A stretch of DNA of 55,356 nucleotides from an uncultured Gammaproteobacteria bacterium (GCA_964637955.1 CAZWXQ010000007.1:1-55356); one strand, 5' to 3'; numbered from the stretch's first letter, positions 1 to 34,789 are shown. Notes: generated by a model not told the origin, from the letters alone. Numbers and translations: made by a program.

Positions 1-451
1 AAGTAATATAGTTTGTGGTCGTGTTTTTATTTAAATTTACAAAGTCATTTATGTTGTAAACTCCACCGCGCATAAATACAACATCTCCGCCAACTGCATT
101 ATTTGCTCCGGTTATTAAGCTACAAGGATTAGTCTGCGTGCAGCTGGTACCTGTTCCAGTAGGGGAAACAAATTTAGTTCCAGAAGATAATGGAGTCGAA
201 GCAACAGCTTGAGGTCCAATACTGATGGATCCATTTGTACCAAATTCTATATAGCCTCCGTCTGAAGCTAGGGAATCTTGTTTAGTAATAACATTTCCTC
301 CTATAACTCCACCTTCGGCTTCAAGTTTATCAGCAGTTGCAGCACGTGATCTATTATCTGAGGTTTGTTTTAAGGCTAGTAGAAAGATTGGAAAAGCAAT
401 TATTAATAATAGTAAAAGTAAAAATAGTTTTCGATTATTTGGGAGCTTCAT
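1..451 (-). CDS. secreted protein, N-terminal part only (signal-anchor, carbohydrate-binding-like segment, start of a right-handed beta-helix/pectate-lyase-fold region); runs off the window
   Basis: Not in the ORF track because it is open at the window edge. Hand translation of the minus strand from ATG at 451-449 gives MKLPNNRKLFLLLLLLIIAFPIFLLALKQTSDNRSRAATADKLEAEGGVIGGNVITKQDSLASDGGYIEFG...TSCTQTNPCSLITGANNAVGGDVVFMRGGVYNINDF... with no stop down to position 2. The start is 1 nt after the stop of the upstream gene. Confidence 0.5.
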   Translation of the reverse strand, partial: MKLPNNRKLFLLLLLLIIAFPIFLLALKQTSDNRSRAATADKLEAEGGVIGGNVITKQDSLASDGGYIEFGTNGSISIGPQAVASTPLSSGTKFVSPTGTGTSCTQTNPCSLITGANNAVGGDVVFMRGGVYNINDFVNLNKNTTTNYIT

Positions 452-452
452 A

Positions 453-1574
453 TTAATCTCCGCTCACAATAGAAAGCTCTCTAAGGAAGTCGTTATAGTC
501 ATCTTGATCAACTTTTCCATCGTCTGATAAATCAGCTGATATTTTTTTATTTGGATCTGTGCAATTTTTTGCAGGTAATAGTTCTGAGTAGCAATCCATA
601 AGGATATTAAAATCAAGAATAGAAAGCGCGTTATCATTGCTTATATCTCCCGTGACCAAGACTACTGTTGGCATTGTGTTTATGCTAGCTTTATTAATTT
701 TAGGTATACCAAATAGTTGTTTTTTAAGATACTGTGGAGACTTAACTTTGATGAGATAATTATTATTTGAACTATCGATCGTTATTGATGGATCAACTAC
801 GATATCTCCTGAAAAATCTCCGGTTGCTGGTTTGTAGATAAGATTGCCTGAGAACGCTGGAAGAGAATTTCCTGAGCTATCAATTAATTCTACAGTAAGA
901 GTTCTAGAAGTTCTTAAAGGATTTTGAGTTCCAGGAAGATTTGGGTTAGTGTTGTCTCCGCCATTTCCAATTCCGTGTAGTTTTACAGAGTTAAATCTAA
1001 GAATTGTACTATTTGGGATTGGTGTTGGCGAGACTGTTGGAGTAGGTGAGACAGTTGGTGTCAGTGTTGGAGTTGGAGTAGGAATAGCCGTATTCGTGGG
1101 AGTTAGAATTGGCGTAGAAGTAGGCGTATTGGTTACCCCTGTTGTAGGAGTTGCAATTATTTCAGCAGGGCAGTTATCGCCACTTATTCCAGTTGGTATA
1201 CAGTTTAAGTTTTTTGTTAGTAGTAGTTTATCTACGCCTACTCCTGGTTGATTTCCAATTATAGTTATCACATGAGTTCCTGCCGTTAAGACTAAATTAT
1301 TGGAATTTGCTACCCAAACCCAAGAAGCTGAAGAGTTTTGAACCAATACAGGACAGGTGCTATCTATTTTAAGGTAAAAAGAATTGTTTGTTGAATCTTG
1401 TGCTTTCATTCTGCTCCAAACTCGATATGTTCCCGCAGTTGCATCAGCAGAAAGAGTTACATTTCCAGTATTTGTCGGTGGGGTAACAGTGCATGTTTGT
1501 GCATGCACGTTTTCAGGTTTGTATTTTAAAAAGATTGTTGACAGTAGTAATAAAGCTAAAAATATTTTTTTCAT
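453..1574 (-). CDS. secreted protein: signal peptide, carbohydrate-binding-like domain, Pro/Thr linker, Ig-like module, dockerin-like C-terminus
   Basis: 373 aa. N-terminal signal MKKIFLALLLLSTIF...VHAQ, then a PT-rich linker (TPTSTPILTPTNTAIPTPTPT). The C-terminus has two Ca-loop-like repeats, GDISNDNALSILDFNILMDCY and ADLSDDGKVDQDDYNDFLREL, typical of dockerins. Confidence 0.6.
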   Translation of the reverse strand: MKKIFLALLLLSTIFLKYKPENVHAQTCTVTPPTNTGNVTLSADATAGTYRVWSRMKAQDSTNNSFYLKIDSTCPVLVQNSSASWVWVANSNNLVLTAGTHVITIIGNQPGVGVDKLLLTKNLNCIPTGISGDNCPAEIIATPTTGVTNTPTSTPILTPTNTAIPTPTPTLTPTVSPTPTVSPTPIPNSTILRFNSVKLHGIGNGGDNTNPNLPGTQNPLRTSRTLTVELIDSSGNSLPAFSGNLIYKPATGDFSGDIVVDPSITIDSSNNNYLIKVKSPQYLKKQLFGIPKINKASINTMPTVVLVTGDISNDNALSILDFNILMDCYSELLPAKNCTDPNKKISADLSDDGKVDQDDYNDFLRELSIVSGD

Positions 1575-2885
1575 TTAATCTCCTTGCTGAACTGAAAGCT
1601 CTCTTAAGAATAGGTTGTAGTCATTTTGATTAACTTTTCCGTCATCTGAGATATCGGCTGCAAGTTTTTTATTTTCGTCACATGTAGGTTTTGCAGGAAG
1701 CAGATCAGAATAGCATTCCATAATAAGATTATAGTCGTCACCGGTTTCAAGTTTATTATCGCTATCAACATCTCCGGCAACTAGATCAACTAAAGCAGCG
1801 TTATTCGCCTGACCCAGAGTAGGTACTAAAAATCCTGGTAATTGTTTTTTCAAATAGAACGGAGTTTTAATTTTTAATATATAGCTTCCATTTACAAAAG
1901 AATTAGGCAAGACGATTTGTCCATCAAAAGTTCCTTGAGTAGCACCGTTGTATACCAAGTTGCCTGATAATGTATGAATAAGAGTTTCGTTTGCATCGTA
2001 GATTTCTAGAGAAAATGGTCTAGTTGTTCTAAGTATATTGAGTGTTCCAACACTGTTTTGATTTGCTGTATCTCCACCTTTTCCAAGCCCATGGAGCTTG
2101 ATGTTGGTGAAGTTAATTACAGTACTAGCTGCAGTTGGCATAGGCGTGCTTGTAGGCACAATTGTAGGCGTAGGAGTGGGGGTTTTTGTTGGAGATGGAG
2201 TTGGCGTAGGTGTTTTAGTAGGAGTTGGTGAATTTGTTGGTGTTGGGATAGGAGTATTGGTTGGTGAAGGTGTGCTTGTGGGCAAATTTGTAGGAGTTGG
2301 TGTGTTGGTAGGAGCTGTATTAATTTTTACAAAAGCAGGAATTGTGGCAGAGAGAACATTTTCATTCGATGAATCACTTGGGGCAATTGAGAGTAATGAA
2401 TTATTTGTACCAAATGCGATTTGTGTAGAATTTACAGGAGCGGTTGCCTTAAAAGTAATTGTCATTATTTTTGTTGGCGTTTGGATTACTTTTGTTTGAT
2501 CAGATCCGATAGAAACGACTATTTGAATTTTTCCACCAGATAAAACTGGACCTTCGATTGTAGTTGGAAATGCTGCAGAATTTACTACAACTTGATTGGC
2601 GTTTGTAACCGATAGTTTAGATGGATCGTATGTTATATCCAATTTTGCTAAGGAAACTAAATTCGTGCCAGGGTCGACCATTACATCCACTACTACATCT
2701 TCATTAATATTTTTTGTGATCGGTGAATTTGATGTTGTTTGTGGAGAAAAATATAAAGTAGAGGCTTTTGAAGCTTGAGTTTGCGAATCTTGTCTTGTTT
2801 TTACAACCAGAAGTATGAGAGGGAGAGCGATAAGTTGAATTATGACTGTTGCAACAATTAGCTTGTGGCTATGTATGAAGTCCAT
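1575..2885 (-). CDS. membrane-anchored cohesin-like domain protein with PT linker, Ig-like module and dockerin-like C-terminus (adaptor-scaffoldin-like)
   Basis: 436 aa. N-terminal TM helix, then a cohesin-like segment [30 protein letters not shown]...[11 protein letters not shown] and a long PT linker. The C-terminus [22 protein letters not shown]...[21 protein letters not shown] is dockerin-like. Confidence 0.55.
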
Positions 2886-2963
2886 AATGTTAGCTTAGAT
2901 AAAATATCTAAACCAGTCAATAGGGCTTACCTTGAAGGCTTACCTTTTCCAGGACCCTGCTTA

Positions 2964-3557
2964 CTAGTTACTAGTAGAATTGGAGATTGTAATATAGGCA
3001 GGAGAAGTTGTAGATAGGACGTTTTCGCCACTGAGATCATTTGAAGCTACTGAATATACAGAATTACCACTTCCAAAAGAAACTAGAGTTTGCTTTGAAG
3101 TGGTATTAGCTATGAAGTTAACTGTTGCAGCTTTGCTTTGTGTGGAAATTGCCTTAGAAAGATCAGCTCCTACTGAAAGAACAACTTGAACTCTGCCATA
3201 TGAATACACAGGACCTTCTATTATCTGAGGAAATACCGCTTCATTTATGACTAAAGGATTTGATGGGGAAATTGAAATTAAGGTCGGGTCATATTGAATA
3301 TCAAGTTTTATTAATGATACAAGATTTTTACCTGGATTTAACATAACATCAAGAGAAAAAGTTTCTCCTACTGCTTTTTGCATGGGAGAGTTTGGAGCGG
3401 ATACTGGAATAAAAGATAGAGTAGTAGATTTTTCTGCTCGACTTCTCGTATCTCTTTGTTGGTTATTGATTACTAGAAATAGAGGCAACATTATTATCAT
3501 AACTACCGCAGAGAAAGCGAAATATTTATGCTTAATTATATTTATAAAACCTCTCAT
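2964..3557 (-). CDS. membrane-anchored cohesin-like domain protein (anchoring-scaffoldin-like, no dockerin)
   Basis: 197 aa. TM helix, then FSLDVMLNPGKNLVSLIKLDIQYDPTLISI...AATVNFIANTT, alignable by eye with the cohesin-like part of the 436-aa neighbour. Confidence 0.5.
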   Translation of the reverse strand: MRGFINIIKHKYFAFSAVVMIIMLPLFLVINNQQRDTRSRAEKSTTLSFIPVSAPNSPMQKAVGETFSLDVMLNPGKNLVSLIKLDIQYDPTLISISPSNPLVINEAVFPQIIEGPVYSYGRVQVVLSVGADLSKAISTQSKAATVNFIANTTSKQTLVSFGSGNSVYSVASNDLSGENVLSTTSPAYITISNSTSN

Positions 3558-3606
3558 ATCATAACAATATGTAATTTAGCCTTAAGTGTCAAGTAACTAT
3601 GGGCAA

Positions 3607-6600
3607 TTAGTCTCCTGATTTTATTGATAACTCTCTTAAGTAAAGATTATAGTCATCTTGATCAACTTTTCCATCATCCGAAATATCAGCGGCATTTTTT
3701 TTATTTTGATCCGAGCAGTTTTTGGCAGGCAAAAAATCTGAATAACAGTCAGATATTAGCTTAAAGTCTAAAATAGATAAAATATTATCATTATTTACAT
3801 CACCTGAAACTAGGATTATTGCTGGCAAGTTAGTAATAGATCCCTTAGTTACGTTAATTATTCCATTATATTGTTTTTTTAGAAATTGTGGTGACTTGAT
3901 TTTGATTAAGTAATTGCCAGTATCAATTGAGGAAGGTAGGGTGATAATGCCAGAAAAATCTCCGGTGTTAGGTGAGTAATTAATATTTCCCTGAGCTGTC
4001 ATGATTAGGGATCCGGAGCTGTTGTTTAATTCAAGTGTCACGCTTCTCGAGATTCTTGCGGGGTTTAAATTACCCCCAGATTTATTATTGGTCGCATCTC
4101 CACCAGAGCCAATTCCGTGAAGTTTTACTGAATTTAATTTTAGTTTAGTAGTGTTTGGAATTGGACTCGGCGTTTGAGTATTTGTGGGTGTTTTAGTGGG
4201 GTTTGGTGAAGGAGTAGGGGTTTTGGTTGGAGTTAAAGTGTATATGGGTGTAGTTGTATTGTTTTTAGAAAAAGATATTTTAAAGCTATTTCCAAGAGAA
4301 TTTTTCATATTAACAGAAAATTTAATAGGTGAAGTTGAGGTAACATTAATTTGAGGGTCTTTTGAGATTACGTCAGTCGCGTTTTTATTGATTGTAATAT
4401 TTACAGAATCATTTTCTTGCGTAGGATCAGCAATAGAAATATTAATAGATTCAGGTTCTTCGTCGACTATTATTGAAGAATTGCCAGAAGAAGATATGTC
4501 TCCTGCATTTCCAGAGCCAAAGAAATTTGCTGCGGTTATATTCAATTTGTTTTCTTTAACAGCATGAGCAGCTGAATTTTGTGCGAGGATTGAAATGTCG
4601 GGTTTCTGTGCATAAGATGAGGTTGTAGACTGACTGCTATTTGGCAAAAATACATATGCATATTTTTCATTTGTAGGATTTACACCATGGTTTATTAAAA
4701 TTTGTGCATAATTTCTTATTGGAGTAGTTAGATCACTTGCAGTATTTTTAATTTGTTTCCAGTTCCCAGATCTTGATTGTTTTTGAGCTGATATATTGCC
4801 ACTAATTGGAAAATAATAGCCACCTGTGCCTTCTAGAAATGCCCACTTTGGATTTAAAATATTAGTAGGGGAGGAGATTGATTTGTTGTCAATCTGAAAT
4901 ATATTTGAATTATCATTTTTAATTTTCCTATTTTCTATGATAGTTTGTACATTTTGATTATTGGTTGCGCTAATATTTGAACCAAGTGCGACAAGCTCAT
5001 TGTCGAATATGAAATATGATTTTTTTGCAAAAACATTTAGCTTTGATTTAAAATTCATTCCAACTGCAACATATGTATTTAATGTTGAGCCTCCTGCGTA
5101 TAATTTTGGAGACATATAATTATTTAGTTTGGAGTCAAAATTTTCGCTTAAATATGTATTGCTTGCTGAAAGCTTGATGGTTTCATCAATTGTTGTTCCT
5201 GGGAGTTTAGTTTTATCAACTGTTGCCCAGAAGTAATCATTGTATTGGCCTGGGTCAGTTTTATTATAAAAATAAATCATACCGTCACTTGTATACCATC
5301 CTTTTTTATTATCGCCATTTATTGATTCATAATTACCAATTCTTCCAGAAGACATGCTTATTCCAAATGCGTAATCATTTTTTAAGCTTACAAGTTTGTC
5401 TATTCTTGGAAAAAGTTTGGTAATTTCATAATTGTTGACAGAGATTAGATTTGGATCTTTGATTAATTTATAAGTTTCGATTATTGTAAAAATACTATCT
5501 CTTATTATTTGTTTATTTGTTTTGTTTAAAATTTCAGAGCCTAAATCTTTATACTGATTACCAGATAGTGAGCTAATGAATCCAGCTAAGCTACTTATTA
5601 GAGGTAAATCTGAATTTGTGACTTCTGTTCTTGGATAGCTTATTAATCTCCCCATAACCATGTCCATGGGAGATTCATTAAACATAAATGGTTGAAAGCT
5701 ATCTTTGTAATATCTATAGAGTTTATCTGTATTTGCAGATGCAAGGTTAGATTGTGATAAAACACGTGAAATTTCAACTACGTTTCTAAAAAATATAGAA
5801 CCGTACCACATATTATACGGATGAATTTCATGCTGAATGAAAGACCCATCACTATAAATTCCATCACTGCTATTCGTATATTGCATGAGCTTTTGATTGT
5901 AGTTGTAAATTGCTTCATCTAGAGCTATGGGATCATTGCTAATTCCTGCTCTTAAAAGTAAAGGAACAGTTGTCATGGCTAGGTTGCCAGCTGTATCGTG
6001 TACGCCATTTCCTTTATAAAATTCATTGCTAGAATTACTTCTTGGATTAGGATAAAAGCGTTCCACAGCGTTCATATTTTTAGTTATAAATTCTGTAAAA
6101 TCAGGATCTTGAGAAAGCCTGTCATATATTAGGATAATATTTGTTGTTAATGATCTTGGAATTCCAACTTCGTAAATTAGATTAGTTGAGCATTGATTTT
6201 CGATTGATTTAGGAGAGTTAAAAACGTTTCCTTTACATGTTTCAGAGTTGTACCAGTTGTTGTTTAACCAAATTAGTGAATCTTTTATTGCGATATAAAA
6301 AGCCTCTTTTTCATTAGGGTCCGTAATTGCTCCTTTAGTGGAGTAGGCAAGTGCCATTTTTTCAATTCTTTCATAAGTATCTGCAACCCAGTCTCCTCCA
6401 TTTGGACCATTTTTGTCGCTAAATAAATATTTTCTATCGGAGGAAGTTATTAATTGAGATTTTATGCTTCTGCCATCGCTTGCAATTTTTGTCACTTTTG
6501 CAGCAATTAAGCCGTTTAATTCTGGGTTTGATGTGTCATAGTTTCCGCCTGTTTCGTAGTTAAACCATGATTCACGAATTTTTGCATAATCATTTCCGCT

Positions 6601-6732
6601 AAAGTCTGCTCTCGTATTAATTTGTTGTTTTTGCTGAGTAGAAAAAATTATAAATGGGAGTGTTATGAGTAGAATGATAAAGGAGACTAAAGCTATTTTT
6701 TTATATTTAGTATTATGCCACAGTTTCCTCAT
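3607..6732 (-). CDS. polysaccharide lyase family 8-like enzyme (hyaluronate/chondroitin/xanthan lyase type) with PT linker, Ig-like module and dockerin-like C-terminus
   Basis: 1041 aa. N-terminal anchor, a PL8-type core including the DGSFIQHEIHPYNMWYGSIF motif region, and beta-sandwich C-domains. This is followed by [17 protein letters not shown] and GDVNNDNILSILDFKLISDCY...[21 protein letters not shown]. Confidence 0.7.
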   Translation of the reverse strand: MRKLWHNTKYKKIALVSFIILLITLPFIIFSTQQKQQINTRADFSGNDYAKIRESWFNYETGGNYDTSNPELNGLIAAKVTKIASDGRSIKSQLITSSDRKYLFSDKNGPNGGDWVADTYERIEKMALAYSTKGAITDPNEKEAFYIAIKDSLIWLNNNWYNSETCKGNVFNSPKSIENQCSTNLIYEVGIPRSLTTNIILIYDRLSQDPDFTEFITKNMNAVERFYPNPRSNSSNEFYKGNGVHDTAGNLAMTTVPLLLRAGISNDPIALDEAIYNYNQKLMQYTNSSDGIYSDGSFIQHEIHPYNMWYGSIFFRNVVEISRVLSQSNLASANTDKLYRYYKDSFQPFMFNESPMDMVMGRLISYPRTEVTNSDLPLISSLAGFISSLSGNQYKDLGSEILNKTNKQIIRDSIFTIIETYKLIKDPNLISVNNYEITKLFPRIDKLVSLKNDYAFGISMSSGRIGNYESINGDNKKGWYTSDGMIYFYNKTDPGQYNDYFWATVDKTKLPGTTIDETIKLSASNTYLSENFDSKLNNYMSPKLYAGGSTLNTYVAVGMNFKSKLNVFAKKSYFIFDNELVALGSNISATNNQNVQTIIENRKIKNDNSNIFQIDNKSISSPTNILNPKWAFLEGTGGYYFPISGNISAQKQSRSGNWKQIKNTASDLTTPIRNYAQILINHGVNPTNEKYAYVFLPNSSQSTTSSYAQKPDISILAQNSAAHAVKENKLNITAANFFGSGNAGDISSSGNSSIIVDEEPESINISIADPTQENDSVNITINKNATDVISKDPQINVTSTSPIKFSVNMKNSLGNSFKISFSKNNTTTPIYTLTPTKTPTPSPNPTKTPTNTQTPSPIPNTTKLKLNSVKLHGIGSGGDATNNKSGGNLNPARISRSVTLELNNSSGSLIMTAQGNINYSPNTGDFSGIITLPSSIDTGNYLIKIKSPQFLKKQYNGIINVTKGSITNLPAIILVSGDVNNDNILSILDFKLISDCYSDFLPAKNCSDQNKKNAADISDDGKVDQDDYNLYLRELSIKSGD

Positions 6733-6900: not shown

Positions 6901-7722
6901 TTAAACTTGGATTCTGATTCCAGGAGACATGGTGGATTTGAGTGTAACTTTTCTAATTCTGTCTTTTTTGATAGCTTGAATTGCAGTTTTTATATTCTCT
7001 TGAAGCTGTTTGTCATCAAAAGATGTTTTTCCAACTGAAAGGTGAATGAGAGGATTTTTACTTTCTGTCTTAAAGCCCATTTGACCTCCTTGAAATTTTT
7101 TAGCAGCTTCTTCAGGTTTTTCTGAAATTGTTCCATTTTTAGGATTTGGCATAAGTCCACGTGGACCTAAAACTCTTGCTACCTTAGCAAGTTTAGGCAT
7201 TTGTACAGGAGTTGCGATAAGAACATCAAAATTAATTTTTCCTTTTTCTACTTCAGCTAGTACAGCGTCATCTGCTATTACAACTCTTATTTCTTTACCT
7301 GTTCCGTGAGGAAGAATCATAGTTCCTGAAATTCCAGGAGTTACAGTATTTATATGGAGTTCAACAGTCTCATCAAATTTCGCCATTTTTACTTTTCTGA
7401 GTAATTCCAAGCCCTCAGCTAGGGGATAAATCTTATTTTTATCCACTTGGATAACTTTTGCAGTGTAATTTGCGGATCTAGATGGACCTTTTTTAAGAAA
7501 TTTTTCCTTTTTTCCTTTTTTAGGAGCTGCTTTTACTTCTTCACTAGAAGCTTCTGATTGATTATTTGCCGATGAATTTTCTGATTGATCTTCGCTTAAA
7601 GTCCCATCAGTGCTATTAGATTCTTCTCGAGCTTTTTTCTCAGCTCTTTTTAAATCTTTTTCAGCTTTTTGCTCTGCTTCCAAGGATTCATCACCGATTA
7701 CATTTACTCTTACTTTTCCCAT
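6901..7722 (-). CDS. rplA: 50S ribosomal protein L1 with ~70-aa charged N-terminal extension
   Basis: L1 motifs GTMILPHGTGK and GPRGLMPNPKNGT. It overlaps rplK by 1 nt. The first ~70 residues are a low-complexity Lys/Glu/Ser-rich extension. Confidence 0.93.
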   Translation of the reverse strand: MGKVRVNVIGDESLEAEQKAEKDLKRAEKKAREESNSTDGTLSEDQSENSSANNQSEASSEEVKAAPKKGKKEKFLKKGPSRSANYTAKVIQVDKNKIYPLAEGLELLRKVKMAKFDETVELHINTVTPGISGTMILPHGTGKEIRVVIADDAVLAEVEKGKINFDVLIATPVQMPKLAKVARVLGPRGLMPNPKNGTISEKPEEAAKKFQGGQMGFKTESKNPLIHLSVGKTSFDDKQLQENIKTAIQAIKKDRIRKVTLKSTMSPGIRIQV

Positions 7723-8977: not shown

Positions 8978-9943
8978 TTATAGTTTATTTACTTGTAAAA
9001 AATCAAGCTCAACAGGTGTTTCGCGACCGAAAATAGAGACTAATACTTTAAGTTTTCCTTTAGCTTCATCGATGTTATCAATAGTTCCTAAGAAGTCTGA
9101 GAAAGGTCCATCAACTATCTTTACAGCTTCGCCAATAGTGAATGAAGTCTTGTAAAGAGGTTCTTCCTCGTTCATAAACTTCATGATTGCTTCAACTTCT
9201 TTTTCTGAAATTGGAGTAGGTTTGTTGCCAGCTCCGATAAATGCAGTTACTCCTTGAGTGGTTCTAATAAGAAGCCATGATTCATCGTCAAGCGCCATAT
9301 TTACAAGAACATATCCTGGAAATATCTTTTCTTTTACAGTTTCTTTTTTACCCTGAGAAACTTTAATAGTATTTCTAGTAGGGACTATGATGTCAAAAAT
9401 TCTATTTTCAAATCCTAGAGACTGAACTCTTTGCTTTATAGACTTTGCAACTTTGTTTTCATGTCCAGAATAAGTGTGGACGATGTACCATCTAGCATTA
9501 ACGTTATCATCTTGATTTAAAATTTTCTTAGCTTCTTCAAGTTTTTCATCAGGATCTTCAACGGGAAGCATTTGCGTATCTTCTTTGATCATCTCTTCTG
9601 TAAGAGTTTCTGGAGTTTCATTTATTTCTTCAGGTTTTTGATTTGCGCCTTTCATCTCGACCATTTGAGTATCTTCTTTAATCTGATCTTCTGTTAAGCT
9701 TTCTGGAGCATCATTTACTTCTTCTACATCATCAGATAAGCCTTCAGTAGAAGCCATCTGTACATCTTCCTTGATCATCTCTGCTGTTAATTCATCAGCA
9801 GGTTCATTTGGAGCTTCATTTGAATTCGCATCATCAGGAAGGGGAACCATGTTTGTGTCTTCCTGGATTTGCTCATCAGTTAAGACCGAAGTTTGATCTT
9901 CGGTTGTGTCTTTTTGGTTCTGTATTTTTTTATTGTCGTCCAT
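8978..9943 (-). CDS. nusG: transcription termination/antitermination factor NusG with ~150-aa acidic repeat N-terminal extension
   Basis: The C-terminal ~170 aa form the NGN domain (WYIVHTYSGHENKV) and KOW domain (GEAVKIVDGPFSDFLGTIDNID...KLKVLVSIFGRETPVEL). It sits directly downstream of secE. Confidence 0.9.
   Translation of the reverse strand: MDDNKKIQNQKDTTEDQTSVLTDEQIQEDTNMVPLPDDANSNEAPNEPADELTAEMIKEDVQMASTEGLSDDVEEVNDAPESLTEDQIKEDTQMVEMKGANQKPEEINETPETLTEEMIKEDTQMLPVEDPDEKLEEAKKILNQDDNVNARWYIVHTYSGHENKVAKSIKQRVQSLGFENRIFDIIVPTRNTIKVSQGKKETVKEKIFPGYVLVNMALDDESWLLIRTTQGVTAFIGAGNKPTPISEKEVEAIMKFMNEEEPLYKTSFTIGEAVKIVDGPFSDFLGTIDNIDEAKGKLKVLVSIFGRETPVELDFLQVNKL
9524..9889 (-). repeat. about 4 tandem coding repeats (~31-33 aa each) of LT(E/A)(E/D)(Q/M)I(K/Q)ED(T/V)(Q/N)M... 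within the nusG 5' part
   Basis: Protein repeats: LTDEQIQEDTNMV, LTAEMIKEDVQMA, LTEDQIKEDTQMV and LTEEMIKEDTQML, with acidic spacers. Confidence 0.6.
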
Positions 9944-16670: not shown

Positions 16671-16741
16671 AGCAAGAAAAGCCCCCTCTATTATGAATTA
16701 TCCCGCGAAACGCGGACCCGCCTGTTGGCGGGAGAGGGGGC
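16671..16741 (-). terminator. branched GC-rich terminator after lemA
   Basis: The outer stem is GCCCCCTCT (16681-16689) / AGAGGGGGC (16733-16741). It encloses hairpins CCGCG-AAA-CGCGG (16703-16715) and CCCGCC-TGTT-GGCGGG (16717-16732). On the minus strand it is followed by TTTTCTT. All read directly. Confidence 0.5.
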
Positions 16742-16774
16742 ACTAAGTCGGCTACATGGGTCTAGGCACGTTTC

Positions 16775-17356
16775 CTAGGGTGCCGGAGAGACTCCGACTC
16801 TGCTGGGCGGCAAGGTCGCCCGAGGGTTTTCGTCTTCCCCGAGAACGTGCTCGTCCGGCCAGAAGAGGCCGATGGGCACGAAGAGCACGCGGCTTCGGTT
16901 GTACGCGGTCTGCGCGTTGATCAGCTCACCCCTGGCATAGGTGATGCGGTTGACCGAGCCTGCGGTCTCATCGAAGAGTCCACGCTGGATCTCCGTGAGC
17001 CCGATGTTCGGGTAGTTCTCCACGAAGGAGCGGAGTGCGAAGAAGGCCTGCGCGGCGTTCTCCACGTTGCCAGGATCGGATGTGTCGCCTTGCGACGCTG
17101 TGTCGAAGGCACTTCGAGCGCTGGCGATCTCCTCGATGAGATCTCGCTGGAGATCGACGGTCACGTTGAACTGCTGCTCAAGCCTGGGCAGTAGTTCGCT
17201 TGCGCGTTCGATCTGGTTCCAGATCTCAGCGGTTTTGCCGCGGATAGTCTCTTGGCCACCAGCGAGGGATGCGTATCCCACGACCTGGTAGGCACCGAAG
17301 AGCCCCGCGATGACGAGTACGATGAGGGAGATCATCCCACATCCACGCATGATCAC
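16775..17356 (-). CDS. lemA: LemA-family protein
   Basis: 193 aa. N-terminal TM helix, then a helical region with ...VENYPNIGLTEIQRGLFDETAGSVNRITYARGELINAQTAYNRSRVLFVP..., resembling the LemA consensus. GTG start. Located upstream of the terminator and downstream of two TPM genes, the usual neighbourhood. Confidence 0.65.
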   Translation of the reverse strand: MIMRGCGMISLIVLVIAGLFGAYQVVGYASLAGGQETIRGKTAEIWNQIERASELLPRLEQQFNVTVDLQRDLIEEIASARSAFDTASQGDTSDPGNVENAAQAFFALRSFVENYPNIGLTEIQRGLFDETAGSVNRITYARGELINAQTAYNRSRVLFVPIGLFWPDEHVLGEDENPRATLPPSRVGVSPAP

Positions 17357-17376
17357 CTTGTGATCCCTTTCTGGCG

Positions 17377-18111
17377 TTAGCCGCCTGAACCGCCGCCGCC
17401 GGAGCTTCCTCCGCCGCCGAATGAACCACCACCCGAGCTCGAGCTAGATGAACTGCCCGAGTAGTAAGACCCCCCGTATCCAGTAGCGCCTCTTAGAGCA
17501 CCAGCTAGGACTACGAGGCCCAAGAAGATGAGTACCCATACCCACCATGGCCAGCCCGAGTCGGGAGATTTGAGGTCTCTGAACTCATCGGCTTCCGGTT
17601 GGGTGAGGAAGTCAGCGAACTTCGTAGCAAGTTGGACGAGTCCGTCTTGCCACTTTCCGTCCTTCCGTAGAGGGTTGAAGAAGTTCTCCCGAAAAAGGGT
17701 GAACTTTGAATCGGGAAGAAGTCCTTCCATGCCTTTGCCGGTAGCGACGAAGATGTAGGGCTTGGGGTCGTTCTTGGATCCCGGACGGTCGAGAAGTACC
17801 ATGATCGTGAGACCATTGTCCTTTTCGGCCGAGCCGATACCGTTCTCATTGGCGACTTTGGTCGCGAACTGAGCCGGATCTGAGTTGATGTCCTTGAAGA
17901 ACACGCCTGCGAGCTGGAAGCCCAGAGTGCCAATCCTATCGGACTGTGCCCTCAATGCCTCCAGGGTTTCGCCGGGAACAGTGCCTGTGGTATCCACCCA
18001 GCCTCGATCACTCTTCGTGATTTGAGGAATGGAGGGATCCGCGGACCCTGAGCAGCCAGCGAGCAGTAGGGTCAGGAAGATGATTACGCCGAAGAGATTC
18101 CGGAGCCTCAT
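17377..18111 (-). CDS. TPM-domain (YgcG-like) lipoprotein with TM helix and Gly/Ser-rich tail
   Basis: Lipobox LLLAGCSG. TPM-like core GIGSAEKDNGLTIMVLLDR...YIFVATGKGMEGLLPDS...FNPLRKDGKWQDGL. TM helix and a GGGSFGGGGSSGGGGSGG tail. Confidence 0.75.
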   Translation of the reverse strand: MRLRNLFGVIIFLTLLLAGCSGSADPSIPQITKSDRGWVDTTGTVPGETLEALRAQSDRIGTLGFQLAGVFFKDINSDPAQFATKVANENGIGSAEKDNGLTIMVLLDRPGSKNDPKPYIFVATGKGMEGLLPDSKFTLFRENFFNPLRKDGKWQDGLVQLATKFADFLTQPEADEFRDLKSPDSGWPWWVWVLIFLGLVVLAGALRGATGYGGSYYSGSSSSSSSGGGSFGGGGSSGGGGSGG

Positions 18112-18119
18112 CTTACTGG

Positions 18120-19154
18120 TTATCCACCCGAGCCTGAGCCGCCGAAGTCTCCACCTCCGCCGAAGGATTCTCCTCCGCCGATGTTGAAGCCTCCAGAGCT
18201 GCCGCTGTCGAATCCTGAGCCGCCGAAGCTGCTCCCGAAAGAATTGCCGCTGTCATCGTCATGATGATGCGAGCTTCTGTGCGGTGGGTCGTCGTCACGG
18301 TCTTCTGGCTCGTCTCTGCGAGTCGAGTGCCCGGCTGAAGCCAGAGTCGCTGCCGTTCCCAGATATGTGAGACCATGGGAAGGGTACGGATCTGGCTGGG
18401 GCGTGTACGACGTTCGCGTGGACGAACTGCTGATTGGGTAGGACACGGGGTCGAAGTAGGGATCCTGCTTCTGGGACTTCCTTGCAAGGACGACCAAGAA
18501 GATCACGACTGCCGCTACGATCGCCCCGAAGATGAGGATCACCCACATGAGGGCGTTCCCATCATTGGTGCTTTGGGTCGGTTGGGGGTTGGGGCTCTGG
18601 GATTCTGGGTTGGACAAGTCCACCATGAAGTTTGCCAGTTCCCTGGAAAGGCTTATGAGGCCTTCTTCCCACCGTCCCTGGGCGCGAAGGGGGTTGAAGT
18701 ACTTCTCCCGGAAGCGGGTCACCGCTGAGTCAGGGAGGTCTCCTTCGAGTCCTCGGCCTGGCGCCACAAAGATGTACGGCTTGTTGCCGTCCGAGCCTTT
18801 GCGGTCCAGGAGGACCAGGATCATGAGACCGTTGTCCTTTTCGGCCGAGCCGATCCCGTTCACGTTACCTACGTCTGAGGTGAACTGGCTGGGGTCGGAT
18901 TCGATGTCCGAAAAGAACACGCCGGCCAATTGATAGCCGCCCGCATGAACCCTGTCGGATTCCTTGCGAAGAGCTTCCATGGTTGCGGCGGGAACTGTTT
19001 CCGTCGTATCCACCCATCCGCGGTCACTGACCGTGATGTGGGGGATGGCGGGGTCTGCTGCTTGTGCGGTGATTCCGACAAGCGACAGCAGGATCACTGC
19101 CACGAAGGGCAAGATCCTTACGAGCCGTGTGGTCACGATGTCCTTTCTGTGCAC
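18120..19154 (-). CDS. TPM-domain (YgcG-like) protein, paralog of the preceding gene, longer Pro/Ser/Gly-rich tail
   Basis: GIGSAEKDNGLMILVLLDR...YIFVAPGRGLEGDLPDS...FNPLRAQGRWEEGL aligns with the neighbour over ~150 aa. Signal peptide and a TM helix. GTG start. Confidence 0.75.
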   Translation of the reverse strand: MHRKDIVTTRLVRILPFVAVILLSLVGITAQAADPAIPHITVSDRGWVDTTETVPAATMEALRKESDRVHAGGYQLAGVFFSDIESDPSQFTSDVGNVNGIGSAEKDNGLMILVLLDRKGSDGNKPYIFVAPGRGLEGDLPDSAVTRFREKYFNPLRAQGRWEEGLISLSRELANFMVDLSNPESQSPNPQPTQSTNDGNALMWVILIFGAIVAAVVIFLVVLARKSQKQDPYFDPVSYPISSSSTRTSYTPQPDPYPSHGLTYLGTAATLASAGHSTRRDEPEDRDDDPPHRSSHHHDDDSGNSFGSSFGGSGFDSGSSGGFNIGGGESFGGGGDFGGSGSGG

Positions 19155-19245
19155 TGCGTGTGCACGCTATGTGTTGTAGCCGATGTTAAAGAGCTGCTAT
19201 GAACCCTCCTTTCGACACGCTAGTGTCAGTTGTCTGACTGTGTCT

Positions 19246-32881: not shown

Positions 32882-34789
32882 TTACTCCGTAGCCCCAGGA
32901 GCTACTTCAATTCTTTTTGAATTCGAAGTTCTGAACAAGAGAGGGGAATTAAGAACAAAATCTGGTCGATAATTTATCTGAACACCAGCTTTAGTTATAT
33001 TTAACGATCCAAGATCCCTCCTTCCTGTAAGAGAGCCAAGCCCAGTATTCTTAGCATTTATAATTATACTTCCGTTTATTATAAGATCCGAATCAGCCCC
33101 AGGTCCTTTGCTTTCTATGTTAAAATTATTTTCTGCTGAGTAAATTCCTTCAATGATAGAAACATTCGGATCAACTGTAATATTACCTTGAGTGACTATA
33201 TCTCCCCCAACAATAAAAATAGCAACAGTGCCTTGTTGAACTTTTATATTACTTTTAATTGTCAGATTGCCTTTAATAAGGAAAATATAATACTTATGAT
33301 CAGATCCGCTTGTAAAAGTAATAGGTGAATTTATCGAAACATCACTTTCTGTAGCATAAATTCCTTGCGTCATGGATGATGAAAGTGTATCACTACTAAA
33401 GCTTTTCTTATTATTGAAGTTTCCTGATCTCTTTAAATTTTCTATAACATTTGTATAAGAAGTATTAAGCTCTTTTGTATCACTTGGATTTTTAAACGGA
33501 GCATTTGCGACTAACTGTTTTTGTTCATTTGCCTTGCTTGGATCATTTTGATTACTCGGTAGAGTAGTAAAGTTAAAATTATGCATTAGAAATACAATCC
33601 CATGCATCATTTTTCCAGGTAGCGTATTAGAAAAATATTGACTAGCAACCGGAATAATGTTGGTAAAGGTAGGACTCTTATATCGATCTAGCCTCATGTT
33701 TCCACCGGTTCCCTGGATCCAGCCGTCGCTGACAGGCCCAGGAGTAATAGTTACAACAGGAGTAGGAGTATTAGTTATTATAACGGCTTTTTTATTTCCA
33801 AATATATATCCAGACATTGATTTACCTTTCATCTTTAGATTGTATCCGCCAGAAGATGGTACTGTTTGTGCATATCCTACCCGAGCAGTTTGAGTTAATT
33901 CATAATCTCCATCACATATTTTTTCAAAATTAAAATTACCATTAGAATCTGTAGTTGTTGTTTTAGTGCTAGTAGTATTTGTCTTGTCTTTAAGTTTTAC
34001 GGGCCATCCCGGTAGTTTTGTGTCTTGACCTTCATCAAATGATCCAAAGTTTATTTTATCTTCAAAAACAAACCCGCTTATACTATTTGGTGAGAATATG
34101 TCTTCTGTAATATTTTTATAAATATTTGTAAGAGTCCCAACGGTTATATCTTTATTTGGATAATATTTTCCTTTACCAGTTTTTTCTCTGGATTTTTTTA
34201 CAATATCTTTTAGAAAAGTTTCGTCTGCATCTTTACCTAAGCCTATTGTGTAGTAAATTGCAGATGAATTTTTGACTTCATTTAAAGCTGCATTTTCTGC
34301 TTCTTTTTGACCTACTACATTTGGCTGGCTTTCCTGAGTTACATTTGCAATTCCATCTGTGAGAAGAATTATTACTTTATCTACATCATTATTTCCGCTT
34401 CTGTTTAATATATATTTACCTTTAAAAATACCACATTCAACACAAGTTTTACTCCCCTGGCTATTAGTAGATATATCATTAATAGATTTAATCGCTTTAT
34501 TAAAATCACTTGTTAAATAGTTTTCAATTGTAGATGATGTGGCGTATGTTGCTATTCCGACACGATTTTTTGGGTTATTTAATCTTAACATGTCTACAAA
34601 ATTTTTAGCTGAATCTTTTGCCTTTTGTAATTTTGAACCGTACATACTTGATGATCTATCGATTACCAATACAACATCAACAGGGGTGGTAGAGCAAACT
34701 TCAGCCGCATCTGATGGCCTTGGGTTTAGGATTGGAAAAAGAAAAAGTATTCCCAGGAAGAAAAATATGAGCAGGATTTTTCGAGACAT
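32882..34789 (-). CDS. secreted von Willebrand factor A domain protein with SdrD-B/Cna-B-like and beta-helix-like C-terminal regions
   Basis: Signal peptide. MIDAS VVLVIDRSSSM and LLTDGIAN. ISGFVFEDK...TTDSNGNFNFEKICDGDYEL is SdrD B-like. Confidence 0.7.
   Translation of the reverse strand: MSRKILLIFFFLGILFLFPILNPRPSDAAEVCSTTPVDVVLVIDRSSSMYGSKLQKAKDSAKNFVDMLRLNNPKNRVGIATYATSSTIENYLTSDFNKAIKSINDISTNSQGSKTCVECGIFKGKYILNRSGNNDVDKVIILLTDGIANVTQESQPNVVGQKEAENAALNEVKNSSAIYYTIGLGKDADETFLKDIVKKSREKTGKGKYYPNKDITVGTLTNIYKNITEDIFSPNSISGFVFEDKINFGSFDEGQDTKLPGWPVKLKDKTNTTSTKTTTTDSNGNFNFEKICDGDYELTQTARVGYAQTVPSSGGYNLKMKGKSMSGYIFGNKKAVIITNTPTPVVTITPGPVSDGWIQGTGGNMRLDRYKSPTFTNIIPVASQYFSNTLPGKMMHGIVFLMHNFNFTTLPSNQNDPSKANEQKQLVANAPFKNPSDTKELNTSYTNVIENLKRSGNFNNKKSFSSDTLSSSMTQGIYATESDVSINSPITFTSGSDHKYYIFLIKGNLTIKSNIKVQQGTVAIFIVGGDIVTQGNITVDPNVSIIEGIYSAENNFNIESKGPGADSDLIINGSIIINAKNTGLGSLTGRRDLGSLNITKAGVQINYRPDFVLNSPLLFRTSNSKRIEVAPGATE

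Follow-up and report, generated by a model that had tools for sequence, protein, structure and literature searches.

A likely minimal cohesin-dockerin assembly system with X-dockerin cargo in a Levybacteria-like bacterium

Known cohesin-dockerin systems and the locus described here

In Clostridium perfringens, the enzymes carry the cohesins and dockerins, and proteins that serve only as sockets are not known. The toxin/glycosidase complexes built in this way around GH84C and GH33 (2W1N, 2JH2, 2VO8) are non-cellulosomal and hold enzymes that act against acidic or host-type glycans. The scaffoldin CipA of Clostridium (Acetivibrio) thermocellum carries nine cohesins and ends in a Coh9-X-DocII stretch (3KCP, 2B59, 4FL4) that binds the type II cohesins of SdbA, OlpB and Orf2p, whereas the enzymes of this species bear bare type I dockerins. 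Ruminococcus flavefaciens has the multi-cohesin proteins ScaA and ScaB, a stand-alone cohesin protein (4N2O), the sortase substrate ScaE as an anchor, and ScaC and ScaH, small proteins with one cohesin and one dockerin that serve as adaptors or spacers (PMC12484212). The known mechanisms by which cellulosomes are anchored are surface-layer homology (SLH) modules and a sortase signal (2025 review, PMC12484212). In the Candidate Phyla Radiation (CPR), a metagenome-assembled genome (MAG) of the Shapirobacterales (Microgenomates) expressed cohesin and dockerin proteins that were read as a cellulosome (10.1101/2021.08.21.457207), and a dockerin-domain envelope protein was found to be essential in Southlakia epibionticum, a Saccharibacterium that has been brought into culture (PMC10633639). 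Here we describe a cluster of five genes, p1 to p5, at one end of a DNA stretch of 55,356 nucleotides deposited as from an uncultured Gammaproteobacteria bacterium (GCA_964637955.1, CAZWXQ010000007.1:1-55356; this whole stretch is called the window below). The cluster is read on the minus strand from position 6732 to position 1 and encodes a polysaccharide lyase of family 8 (PL8), a cohesin-only protein, a protein with a cohesin and an X-dockerin (XDoc), a carbohydrate-binding-like protein with an XDoc, and a beta-helix protein.

We think it likely that this cluster encodes a minimal, non-cellulosomal and two-tier cohesin-dockerin assembly system of a Levybacteria-like bacterium (Microgenomates, CPR). 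In the assembly that we propose, all five products would be exported via Sec. The proteins p2 and p3 would act as sockets that supply one cohesin each, with p3 adding a Pro/Thr linker of 63 residues and an XDoc, and the lyase p1 and the binding module p4 would be the plugs, each with a Pro/Thr linker and a calcium-binding XDoc. The adaptor-type XDoc of p3 would dock onto the cohesin of p2, and the cargo-type XDocs of p1 and p4 would dock onto the cohesin of p3, or straight onto that of p2, so that lyase and binding module would be kept side by side on the cell surface or close to it. Having no dockerin, p5 would work unattached on the acidic polysaccharide that the lyase attacks. We infer the binding between cohesins and dockerins, and the pairs formed, from the modules described in the next section.

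A first reading of this DNA from its sequence only (the sequence-only reading) had called the gene set cellulosome-style. In the strict sense the label does not hold, as p2 and p3 have one cohesin each and there is no multi-cohesin scaffoldin, neither the cluster nor the related loci gave a match to GH5, GH9, GH48 or CBM3, and SLH or sortase attachment is absent. The comparison with type II XDocs goes half of the way: an Ig-like X module is fused N-terminal to the dockerin, but the type II cohesin partner on an SLH-anchored scaffoldin is missing. The proposed system would operate in the manner of a cellulosomal adaptor/anchor pair, with genuine cohesin, X-module and dockerin folds. With CipA, p3 shares the order cohesin, linker, X module and dockerin, and its role would match as well, being that of a cohesin-bearing protein that plugs into another cohesin. 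It differs in having one cohesin instead of nine, in lacking CBM3, in a sequence identity of 14-19%, in having a partner without SLH, and in a dockerin with a longer inter-helix linker and two conserved cysteines; XDocs are moreover found on the enzymes here. R. flavefaciens likewise has a stand-alone cohesin protein and one-cohesin adaptors, and the fold matches of p3 include 4N2O as well as two ScaC cohesins, 4UYP and 5LXV. However, R. flavefaciens belongs to an unrelated phylum and uses a sortase-attached anchor and multi-cohesin scaffoldins, whereas here there is no LPxTG motif, none of the relatives has more than two cohesins per protein, the genome is very small and the cargo does not consist of plant-cell-wall cellulases. 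Cohesins of C. perfringens are also found among the p3 fold matches, and that system is the closest analogue as regards a use on non-cellulosic glycans, although its enzymes are glycoside hydrolases and those encoded here are PL8 and PL9-like lyases.

Cohesins, X-dockerins and their possible specificities

The cohesin-only protein p2 (2964-3557, minus strand, as for all features of the cluster) is 197 amino acids long and consists of a hydrophobic helix followed by QQRDTRSRA (residues 1-41; 3435-3557) and a cohesin (residues ~42-191; 2985-3434), with no linker, dockerin or known anchor. It scores 26.9 bits with the Pfam Cohesin family (PF00963), whose gathering score is 24.1. The same hidden Markov model (HMM) matches 14 of 19 aligned family members, the best with an E value of 2e-07, and p2 has 15 orthologues with identities of 47-81%. 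The sequence-only reading of p2 as a cohesin-only protein is thus borne out.

The adaptor-like protein p3 (1575-2885; 436 amino acids) starts with a signal region (residues 1-38; 2772-2885), followed by a cohesin (39-189; 2319-2771), a Pro/Thr linker (190-252; 2130-2318) and an X module with a dockerin (253-436; 1578-2129). A Pfam search of p3 called no cohesin. Residues 4-188 are, however, 44% identical to p2 (E value of 2e-49), and a cohesin fold is present in the AlphaFold2 model, which was built from 55 orthologues and has a mean pLDDT of 85. This model contains an N-terminal helix, a beta-sandwich at residues 42-189 with a pLDDT mostly above 90, a disordered Pro/Thr linker, a second beta-sandwich at 256-362 and three helices at 381-431. 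In Foldseek searches, the model cohesin (42-189) matched the type I cohesins 6KGE, 6KGC, 1G1K and 1AOH (TM score of 0.74-0.81, root mean square deviation of 2.3-3.0 A, probability of 1.0), and the type II cohesins 5K39 and 3GHP less well (TM score of 0.51). The top match of the whole p3 model was 3KCP_A, the Coh9-X-DocII part of CipA (E value of 2e-13), and the model supports a view of p3 as a one-cohesin copy of the Coh-X-Doc arrangement of CipA. The logic of scaffoldin, adaptor and cargo that had been proposed for the cluster gains support from this match. In the alignment of 19 sequences, the cohesins of p2 type and of p3 type form separate orthologous groups.

The other half of the system is formed by the final ~180 residues of p1, p3 and p4, which are one conserved module with identities of 49-61%. 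With Pfam Dockerin_1 (PF00404), whose gathering score is 22.9, p1 reaches 24.2 bits in context and its module taken alone 27.0 bits, whereas the dockerins of p3 and p4 stay under the cutoff with 17.7 and 15.7 bits. Dockerin matches in Pfam were obtained for 12 of 13 aligned modules. The PDB chains matched by a profile made of these 13 modules almost all bear a dockerin, with 2B59_B and 3KCP_A as the best matches, and the match to these two starts within the X module and runs through the dockerin (query positions 77-167, E value of 1.6e-4). Because the match spans both parts, the tail is a dyad of X module and dockerin, and more than a dockerin on its own. The dockerin-like tail of the sequence-only reading therefore stands as far as the dockerin of p1 is concerned, and has to be extended to a module of ~180 amino acids made of an Ig-like X module and a dockerin. 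In the p3 model, the beta-sandwich of the X module (256-362) is followed by dockerin helices at 381-391, 404-410 and 420-431. Two calcium loops of 12 residues are visible, one of them DVNNDNILSILD, in which Asp, Asn or Ser occupies positions 1, 3 and 5, and Asp position 12. That these repeats belong to an EF-hand family other than dockerin was considered and ruled out, as the Pfam and PDB matches are dockerins. Thus, when the assignments were checked with HMMs, Cohesin in p2 and Dockerin_1 in p1 both exceeded their Pfam cutoffs, and with the p3 model the domain identities and folds are established. When the XDoc and cohesin profiles were run over the proteins of the window, none was found beyond the cluster. 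With the isolated XDoc module as the query, a word-indexed search for homologues returned one match only.

Two cysteines are conserved in each of the dockerins of p1, p3 and p4 (3640-3680, 1610-1650 and 490-530, respectively). One lies in a CYSD motif that closes helix 1 and the other in an N-C or T-C pair ten residues on, within an unusually long inter-helix linker. The two may form a disulfide staple.

The protein p4 (453-1574; 373 amino acids) starts with a canonical signal peptide (residues 1-25; 1500-1574), followed by a non-catalytic CBM6/35-like beta-sandwich (26-137; 1164-1499), a Pro/Thr linker (142-187; 1014-1151) and the XDoc (188-373; 456-1013), which the XDoc HMM matches with an E value of 2e-102. 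Pfam matches of the N-terminal domain are weak (CBM_6, 0.16; GH115_C, 0.097), and by sequence its PDB matches are chance-level antibody chains only. A model of moderate quality (pLDDT of 71-80) gave Foldseek matches to CBM35 (2VZP) and CBM6 (8J3X and 1GMM) with E values of 2e-3 to 5e-3 and a probability of 1.0. It is therefore reasonable to consider this sandwich of ~110 residues as carbohydrate-binding-like, as the sequence-only reading had done, although this predicted fold is the least secure of the domain calls.

The two tiers of the proposed assembly are suggested by the way in which the XDocs divide. Among close relatives, they fall into a cohesin-borne (adaptor) clade and a cargo clade, conserved over four genomes, and 16 alignment columns fully discriminate between the two. 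Among the differences are the residue that precedes the CYS motif, either Glu or Asp, and the place of the second conserved Cys, which is displaced by one residue. The existence of two XDoc subtypes is thus established for these relatives. Two XDoc clades together with two orthologous groups of cohesins are the pattern expected if there are two specificities, which is not the same as proof of them.

The lyases, the N-terminal motif and the conserved locus

The first gene of the cluster encodes p1 (3607-6732), a secreted protein of 1041 amino acids with a signal region (residues 1-42; 6607-6732), a three-domain PL8 core (~45-819; 4276-6600), a Pro/Thr linker (826-859; 4156-4257) and the C-terminal XDoc (862-1041; 3610-4149). 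The presence of a PL8-type lyase at the head of the cluster was confirmed by Pfam, with matches to Lyase_8_N (7e-34), Lyase_8 (1.5e-61) and Lyase_8_C (7e-15), all above their gathering scores. The nearest solved structures by sequence are xanthan lyases, 6F2P of Paenibacillus nanensis (3e-103) and 1J0M, XalA of Bacillus sp. GL1 (3e-87), followed by weaker matches to chondroitin AC lyase 1RWA (1e-71) and hyaluronate lyases (~1e-47); the match to the NCBIfam HylB model is far below its cutoff. The alignment covers 594 residues of p1 against 6F2P and 774 against 1J0M, and the three-domain architecture is the same. Unlike these xanthan lyases, p1 continues with a Pro/Thr linker and an XDoc, whereas 6F2P runs on into other C-terminal modules. 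Residues Asn250, His301, Tyr310 and Arg362 of p1 align with residues 169, 221, 230 and 284 of 1J0M chain A, which we take to be the catalytic Asn194, His246, Tyr255 and Arg309 in the numbering of mature XalA. Judged by its three domains and the conserved catalytic Asn, His, Tyr and Arg, p1 is a member of the PL8 family.

The window ends within p5 (1-451), of which it contains the first 150 amino acids; the C-terminus lies beyond its edge. An independent assembly of the same population contains the gene in full (L001:1615-4020, 801 amino acids, followed by an unrelated gene). The complete protein is secreted and PL9-like, with matches to Pfam Beta_helix (9e-11), to Pel9A-like_beta_helix in the precomputed annotation and to the PL9 pectate lyase Pel9A (1RU4; 1.3e-11, residues 174-372 only), in agreement with the pectate-lyase-type beta-helix that the sequence-only reading had seen in the fragment. 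The XDoc HMM gave no match against full-length p5, and because it has no dockerin, p5 counts as a neighbour rather than as a subunit that docks. PL8 together with the adjoining PL9-like genes supports an acidic polysaccharide as the probable target, and the proposal of a glycosaminoglycan or xanthan-like substrate is upheld to the extent that xanthan lyases are nearest to p1; which polysaccharide it would be we can only infer.

Dockerin-less enzymes share a stretch of ~35 residues straight after the signal motif, A-x-A-D-K-L-E-A-E-G/S-G-x-L...A-S-G-G-Y. It is found in p5 (residues 38-72; window 1-340) and in the products of L002:13393-15957, L002:18493-20580, L008:8700-12458 and L004:16811-19574, which are PL9-like, PL8 and beta-helix enzymes. 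The stretch resembles the opening strands of a CBM6/35 domain, and in p5 it seems too short for a whole domain.

Four of the five proteins (p1, p2, p3 and p5) share an N-terminus made of a basic stretch, a hydrophobic helix of 19-20 residues with an internal Leu-Pro or Phe-Pro, and a Gln-rich polar stretch of 10-12 residues that ends in SRA, TRA or TQA. The motifs DNRSRA (p5), DTRSRA (p2), INTRA and DSQTQA are present in these four proteins exactly as the sequence-only reading had quoted them. In p4, a short signal peptide of canonical type takes the place of this N-terminus. Across the 19 cohesin sequences, neither the Leu-Pro in the helix nor the final Ala varies, and in the 55 p3 orthologues the Gln and the Ala are at least 90% conserved, with Q-E-T-R-x-x-A as the consensus. 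In related loci, GH26, PL8, PL9 and beta-helix proteins carry the same N-terminus, and ordinary short signal peptides are found on p4 and on a VWA protein at 32882-34789. The five N-termini of the cluster end in SRA, SRA, TRA, TQA and VHA, which fits the rule of small residues at positions -3 and -1, and the hydrophobic core of 19-20 residues and the polar stretch of 10-12 residues are longer than usual; in the p3 model, the first cohesin strand begins four residues past the motif Ala. Given this small-x-Ala ending and the cohesin fold four residues on, p1, p2, p3 and p5 may be cleaved and released. The motif is probably a lineage-typical long Sec signal with a cleavage site for signal peptidase I, and a signal-anchor helix is possible in view of the long hydrophobic core. 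Other types of signal were considered and rejected: there is no RR ahead of the helix (Tat signal), no lipobox Cys (lipoprotein), no motif of a prepilin-type or SipW-type signal and no LPxTG (sortase substrate).

The sequence-only reading had called p2 and p3 membrane-anchored. This was an assumption, as the motif fits a signal peptidase I site and no SLH, LPxTG or other known anchor is present; Pfam gave no SLH match in any of the five proteins, and an LPxTG-like sortase motif was not found in the proteins of the cluster. A Gly-rich tail with a Lys/Arg-rich end (such as GKGKPTK or GKGKPSR) closes 10 of the 15 aligned p2 orthologues. In the window, a 7-bp tandem duplication, ACTAGTA/ACTAGTA (2962-2975), creates the p2 stop codon, as frame translations show, and an out-of-frame remnant of the basic tail, KQGPGKGKPSR, lies directly after it (2927-2961). 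The duplication is present in contigs from four separate runs without a single indel variant, and we therefore consider it to be a real allele. Candidates for the anchor could be an uncleaved N-terminal helix or the Gly/Lys/Arg-rich C-terminal tail that p2 of the window has lost.

All five co-directional open reading frames lie where they had been placed and in the order given, but the gene cut by the window edge is the last to be transcribed and not the first. The gaps between p1, p2, p3, p4 and p5 are 49, 78, 0 and 1 nucleotides, and nusG, rplK and rplA (the latter at 6901-7722) lie upstream of the cluster on the same strand. Promoter-like elements precede p2 (3564-3592; TTGACA, 17 nucleotides, TATTGT, 6 nucleotides, ATG) and p3 (2886-2920; TTGACT, 17 nucleotides, TAAGCT, 6 nucleotides, ATG). 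The same geometry, with a spacer of 17-18 nucleotides, is found before the p3 orthologues of two related loci, L002 (10625-10667) and L004 (10655-10698). A scan for promoters and terminators did not find more sites than in shuffled sequence, and because it stays at chance level overall, these elements rest on their conservation. Such a geometry would yield leaderless or near-leaderless mRNAs for p2 and p3, where no Shine-Dalgarno sequence is visible. The starts of p4 and p5 lie 0-1 nucleotides past the preceding stop (1575-1592 and 453-470, minus strand), and the conserved codons at the end of the XDoc (...S/Q-G-D-stop, AGGAGACTAA) double as the Shine-Dalgarno sequence of the next gene. RNA sequencing runs that contain the locus were looked for and none was found.

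The source of the DNA is, judged by its relatives, a Levybacteria-like Microgenomates (CPR) bacterium with a small genome. Genome matches are labelled Candidatus Levybacteria or Levyibacteriota, and protein matches Levybacteria, Daviesbacteria or Patescibacteria; the contig was found in bioreactor metagenomes. The gene order is conserved: a cohesin/XDoc cluster follows nusG-rplK-rplA in the window and in five related loci (L002, L004, L005, L006 and L008). The cohesin-only protein (absent from L008), the cohesin + XDoc protein and the CBM-like + XDoc protein recur in these five, and dockerin-less lyases are found downstream of the cluster in L002, L004 and L008. The cargo varies between loci and includes GH26, fn3/Pur_ac_phosph_N and PL8. 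In L002, a GH26-XDoc protein is at the head of the cluster and PL8 is present without XDoc. This variation indicates that the scaffold locus is conserved and that the PL8-XDoc fusion is one variant of its cargo.

An exhaustive search with a profile of 390 positions, which contains cohesin and XDoc columns and thus counts proteins with a cohesin and/or an XDoc together, yielded 3919 representative proteins with a cutoff of E<=1e-3 and 1205 with one of E<=1e-30. Among 264 collected proteins there were 205 with cohesin + XDoc (median length of 433 amino acids), 27 with cohesin only, 30 with XDoc only and 2 with two cohesins; none had more than two cohesins. Three rare relatives (P0243, P0259 and P0205) have other layouts: two of them are the two-cohesin proteins, of 564-567 amino acids and with no XDoc, and the third has one cohesin followed by two XDoc modules in 649 amino acids. 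In distant members, the cargo is mostly adhesin-like, with VWA + SdrD_B in 7 of 10 sampled XDoc cargo proteins, which points to a general surface-assembly device that is not specifically polysaccharide-degrading.

Housekeeping genes make up the rest of the window, in which a few other features were seen. The VWA protein with an ordinary signal peptide (32882-34789, minus strand) is secreted, 635 amino acids long and without XDoc. A stretch at ~16700-19200 has a G+C content of 0.50, against ~0.35 elsewhere, and contains genes for LemA and two TPM_phosphatase proteins, one with a lipoprotein-like signal. An independent contig (L012) carries it too, so that it is probably an island gained by horizontal transfer rather than an assembly chimera. 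NusG (8978-9943, minus strand) has an acidic N-terminal extension of ~140 residues with four repeats of L-T-x-E-x-I-K/Q-E-D-T/V-Q/N-M, and ribosomal protein L1 (rplA, minus strand) has a Ser/Glu/Lys-rich N-terminal extension of ~60 residues.

Alternative explanations and wider meaning

Several observations weigh against a two-tier assembly of this kind. The assignment of the cohesins has a modest Pfam score and a predicted fold behind it; the cohesin profile found no match among PDB sequences even at E<=1, so that structure prediction was needed. With one cohesin per scaffoldin there is no multiplication of enzymes as in true cellulosomes, and the columns that distinguish adaptor from cargo XDocs among close relatives do not hold more widely, as no column separates the two across 236 modules. 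A recognised anchor (SLH or LPxTG) is absent, and if the signal peptides are cleaved, the tail-less p2 would have no visible means of being retained by the cell. The similarity of p1 to xanthan lyases, ~300 bits, is too little to fix its substrate.

The cohesin + XDoc architecture is by far the commonest (205 of 264 proteins, median of 433 amino acids), each p3 unit has a Pro/Thr linker of ~60 residues, and the p2 and p3 cohesins are paralogues at 44% identity, for which cross-recognition is conceivable. This would fit a head-to-tail polymer in which p3 binds its own copies, p2 forms the base and p1 or p4 the cap, a stalk that lifts one enzyme beyond the envelope. We consider such a polymer quite unlikely, as the XDocs of p3 type form a clade apart from the cargo XDocs and the cohesin types are distinct groups, so that two specificities are expected; to our knowledge, cellulosomal systems also avoid self-binding. 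It is very improbable that the modules do not pair at all, with the XDoc as a calcium-stabilised tail that binds wall or glycan and the cohesin-like domain as a generic Ig-like spacer. Peer et al. are said to have noted, in 2009, isolated cohesin- and dockerin-like modules without a demonstrated partner in many bacteria and archaea, and the Pfam scores found here are barely above threshold, but the two module types are encoded next to each other, fused in hundreds of clusters and syntenic across genomes, and the order Coh-linker-X-Doc reproduces that of CipA.

A further alternative is an attachment apparatus, in which cohesin and XDoc mount adhesins and glycan-active proteins on an episymbiotic CPR cell. 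Its aim would be to grip a host cell and open its capsule or exopolysaccharide (EPS), with the lyases of the window being merely the cargo of this strain. The VWA + SdrD_B proteins among the distant cargo (7 of 10) and the frequent VWA/ChlD-like cargo among p3 homologues are in line with such a role, as are the small, CPR-like genome, in which housekeeping genes alone flank the cluster in the window, the essential dockerin-domain envelope protein of S. epibionticum (PMC10633639) and the cohesin/dockerin proteins detected in a Microgenomates MAG proteome (10.1101/2021.08.21.457207). However, the cargo here and in the nearest relatives is of the type of carbohydrate-active enzymes (PL8, GH26, CBM-like and fn3), the flanking genes encode lyases, and the sole VWA protein of the window has no XDoc. 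As we also know of no host for Levybacteria, we regard this role as unlikely for the cluster. The two-tier system, with p2 and p3 as sockets and p1 and p4 as cargo, is the explanation that we retain.

Searches of the literature outside subscription-only papers found passing mentions of related proteins only, and no account of the locus, of the XDoc on cargo, of the single-cohesin scaffoldins or of the N-terminal motif. What we see looks like a pared-down relative of the cellulosome, common in this bacterial group yet not described as a system. It is possible, although this is a tentative extension, that CPR/Patescibacteria have a widespread surface-assembly system, comprising at least 1,200 protein clusters, with the cohesin + XDoc proteins as its core, swappable cargo and an anchor that depends neither on SLH nor on sortase. 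The cargo of such a wider system might then consist of VWA adhesins, lyases, glycosidases and binding modules displayed on ultrasmall episymbiotic cells, with the nusG-rplKA adjacency as a trait of this lineage; we hold this view with some doubt. Equally speculative is the nature of the anchor, for which a signal-anchor helix with the conserved Q-E-x-R-x-x-A or the Gly/Lys-rich C-terminal tail might serve.

The cohesin-dockerin concept would be widened by such a system, with an XDoc on every cargo protein, single-cohesin scaffoldins and the use of neither SLH nor sortase. As the modules are small, they are orthogonal candidates for designer enzyme complexes, and the PL8-XDoc fusion points toward a targeted attack on acidic exopolysaccharides, for example the xanthan-like EPS of bioreactor biofilms. 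Much of bacterial diversity belongs to the CPR/Patescibacteria, which live with genomes of ~1 Mb and are believed to rely on other cells. For these bacteria, a compact plug-and-socket system with exchangeable cargo would offer a concrete mechanism for surface display and for attachment to hosts or substrates, and if the wider reading is true, it would be a main tool with which they grip their hosts and substrates and feed.

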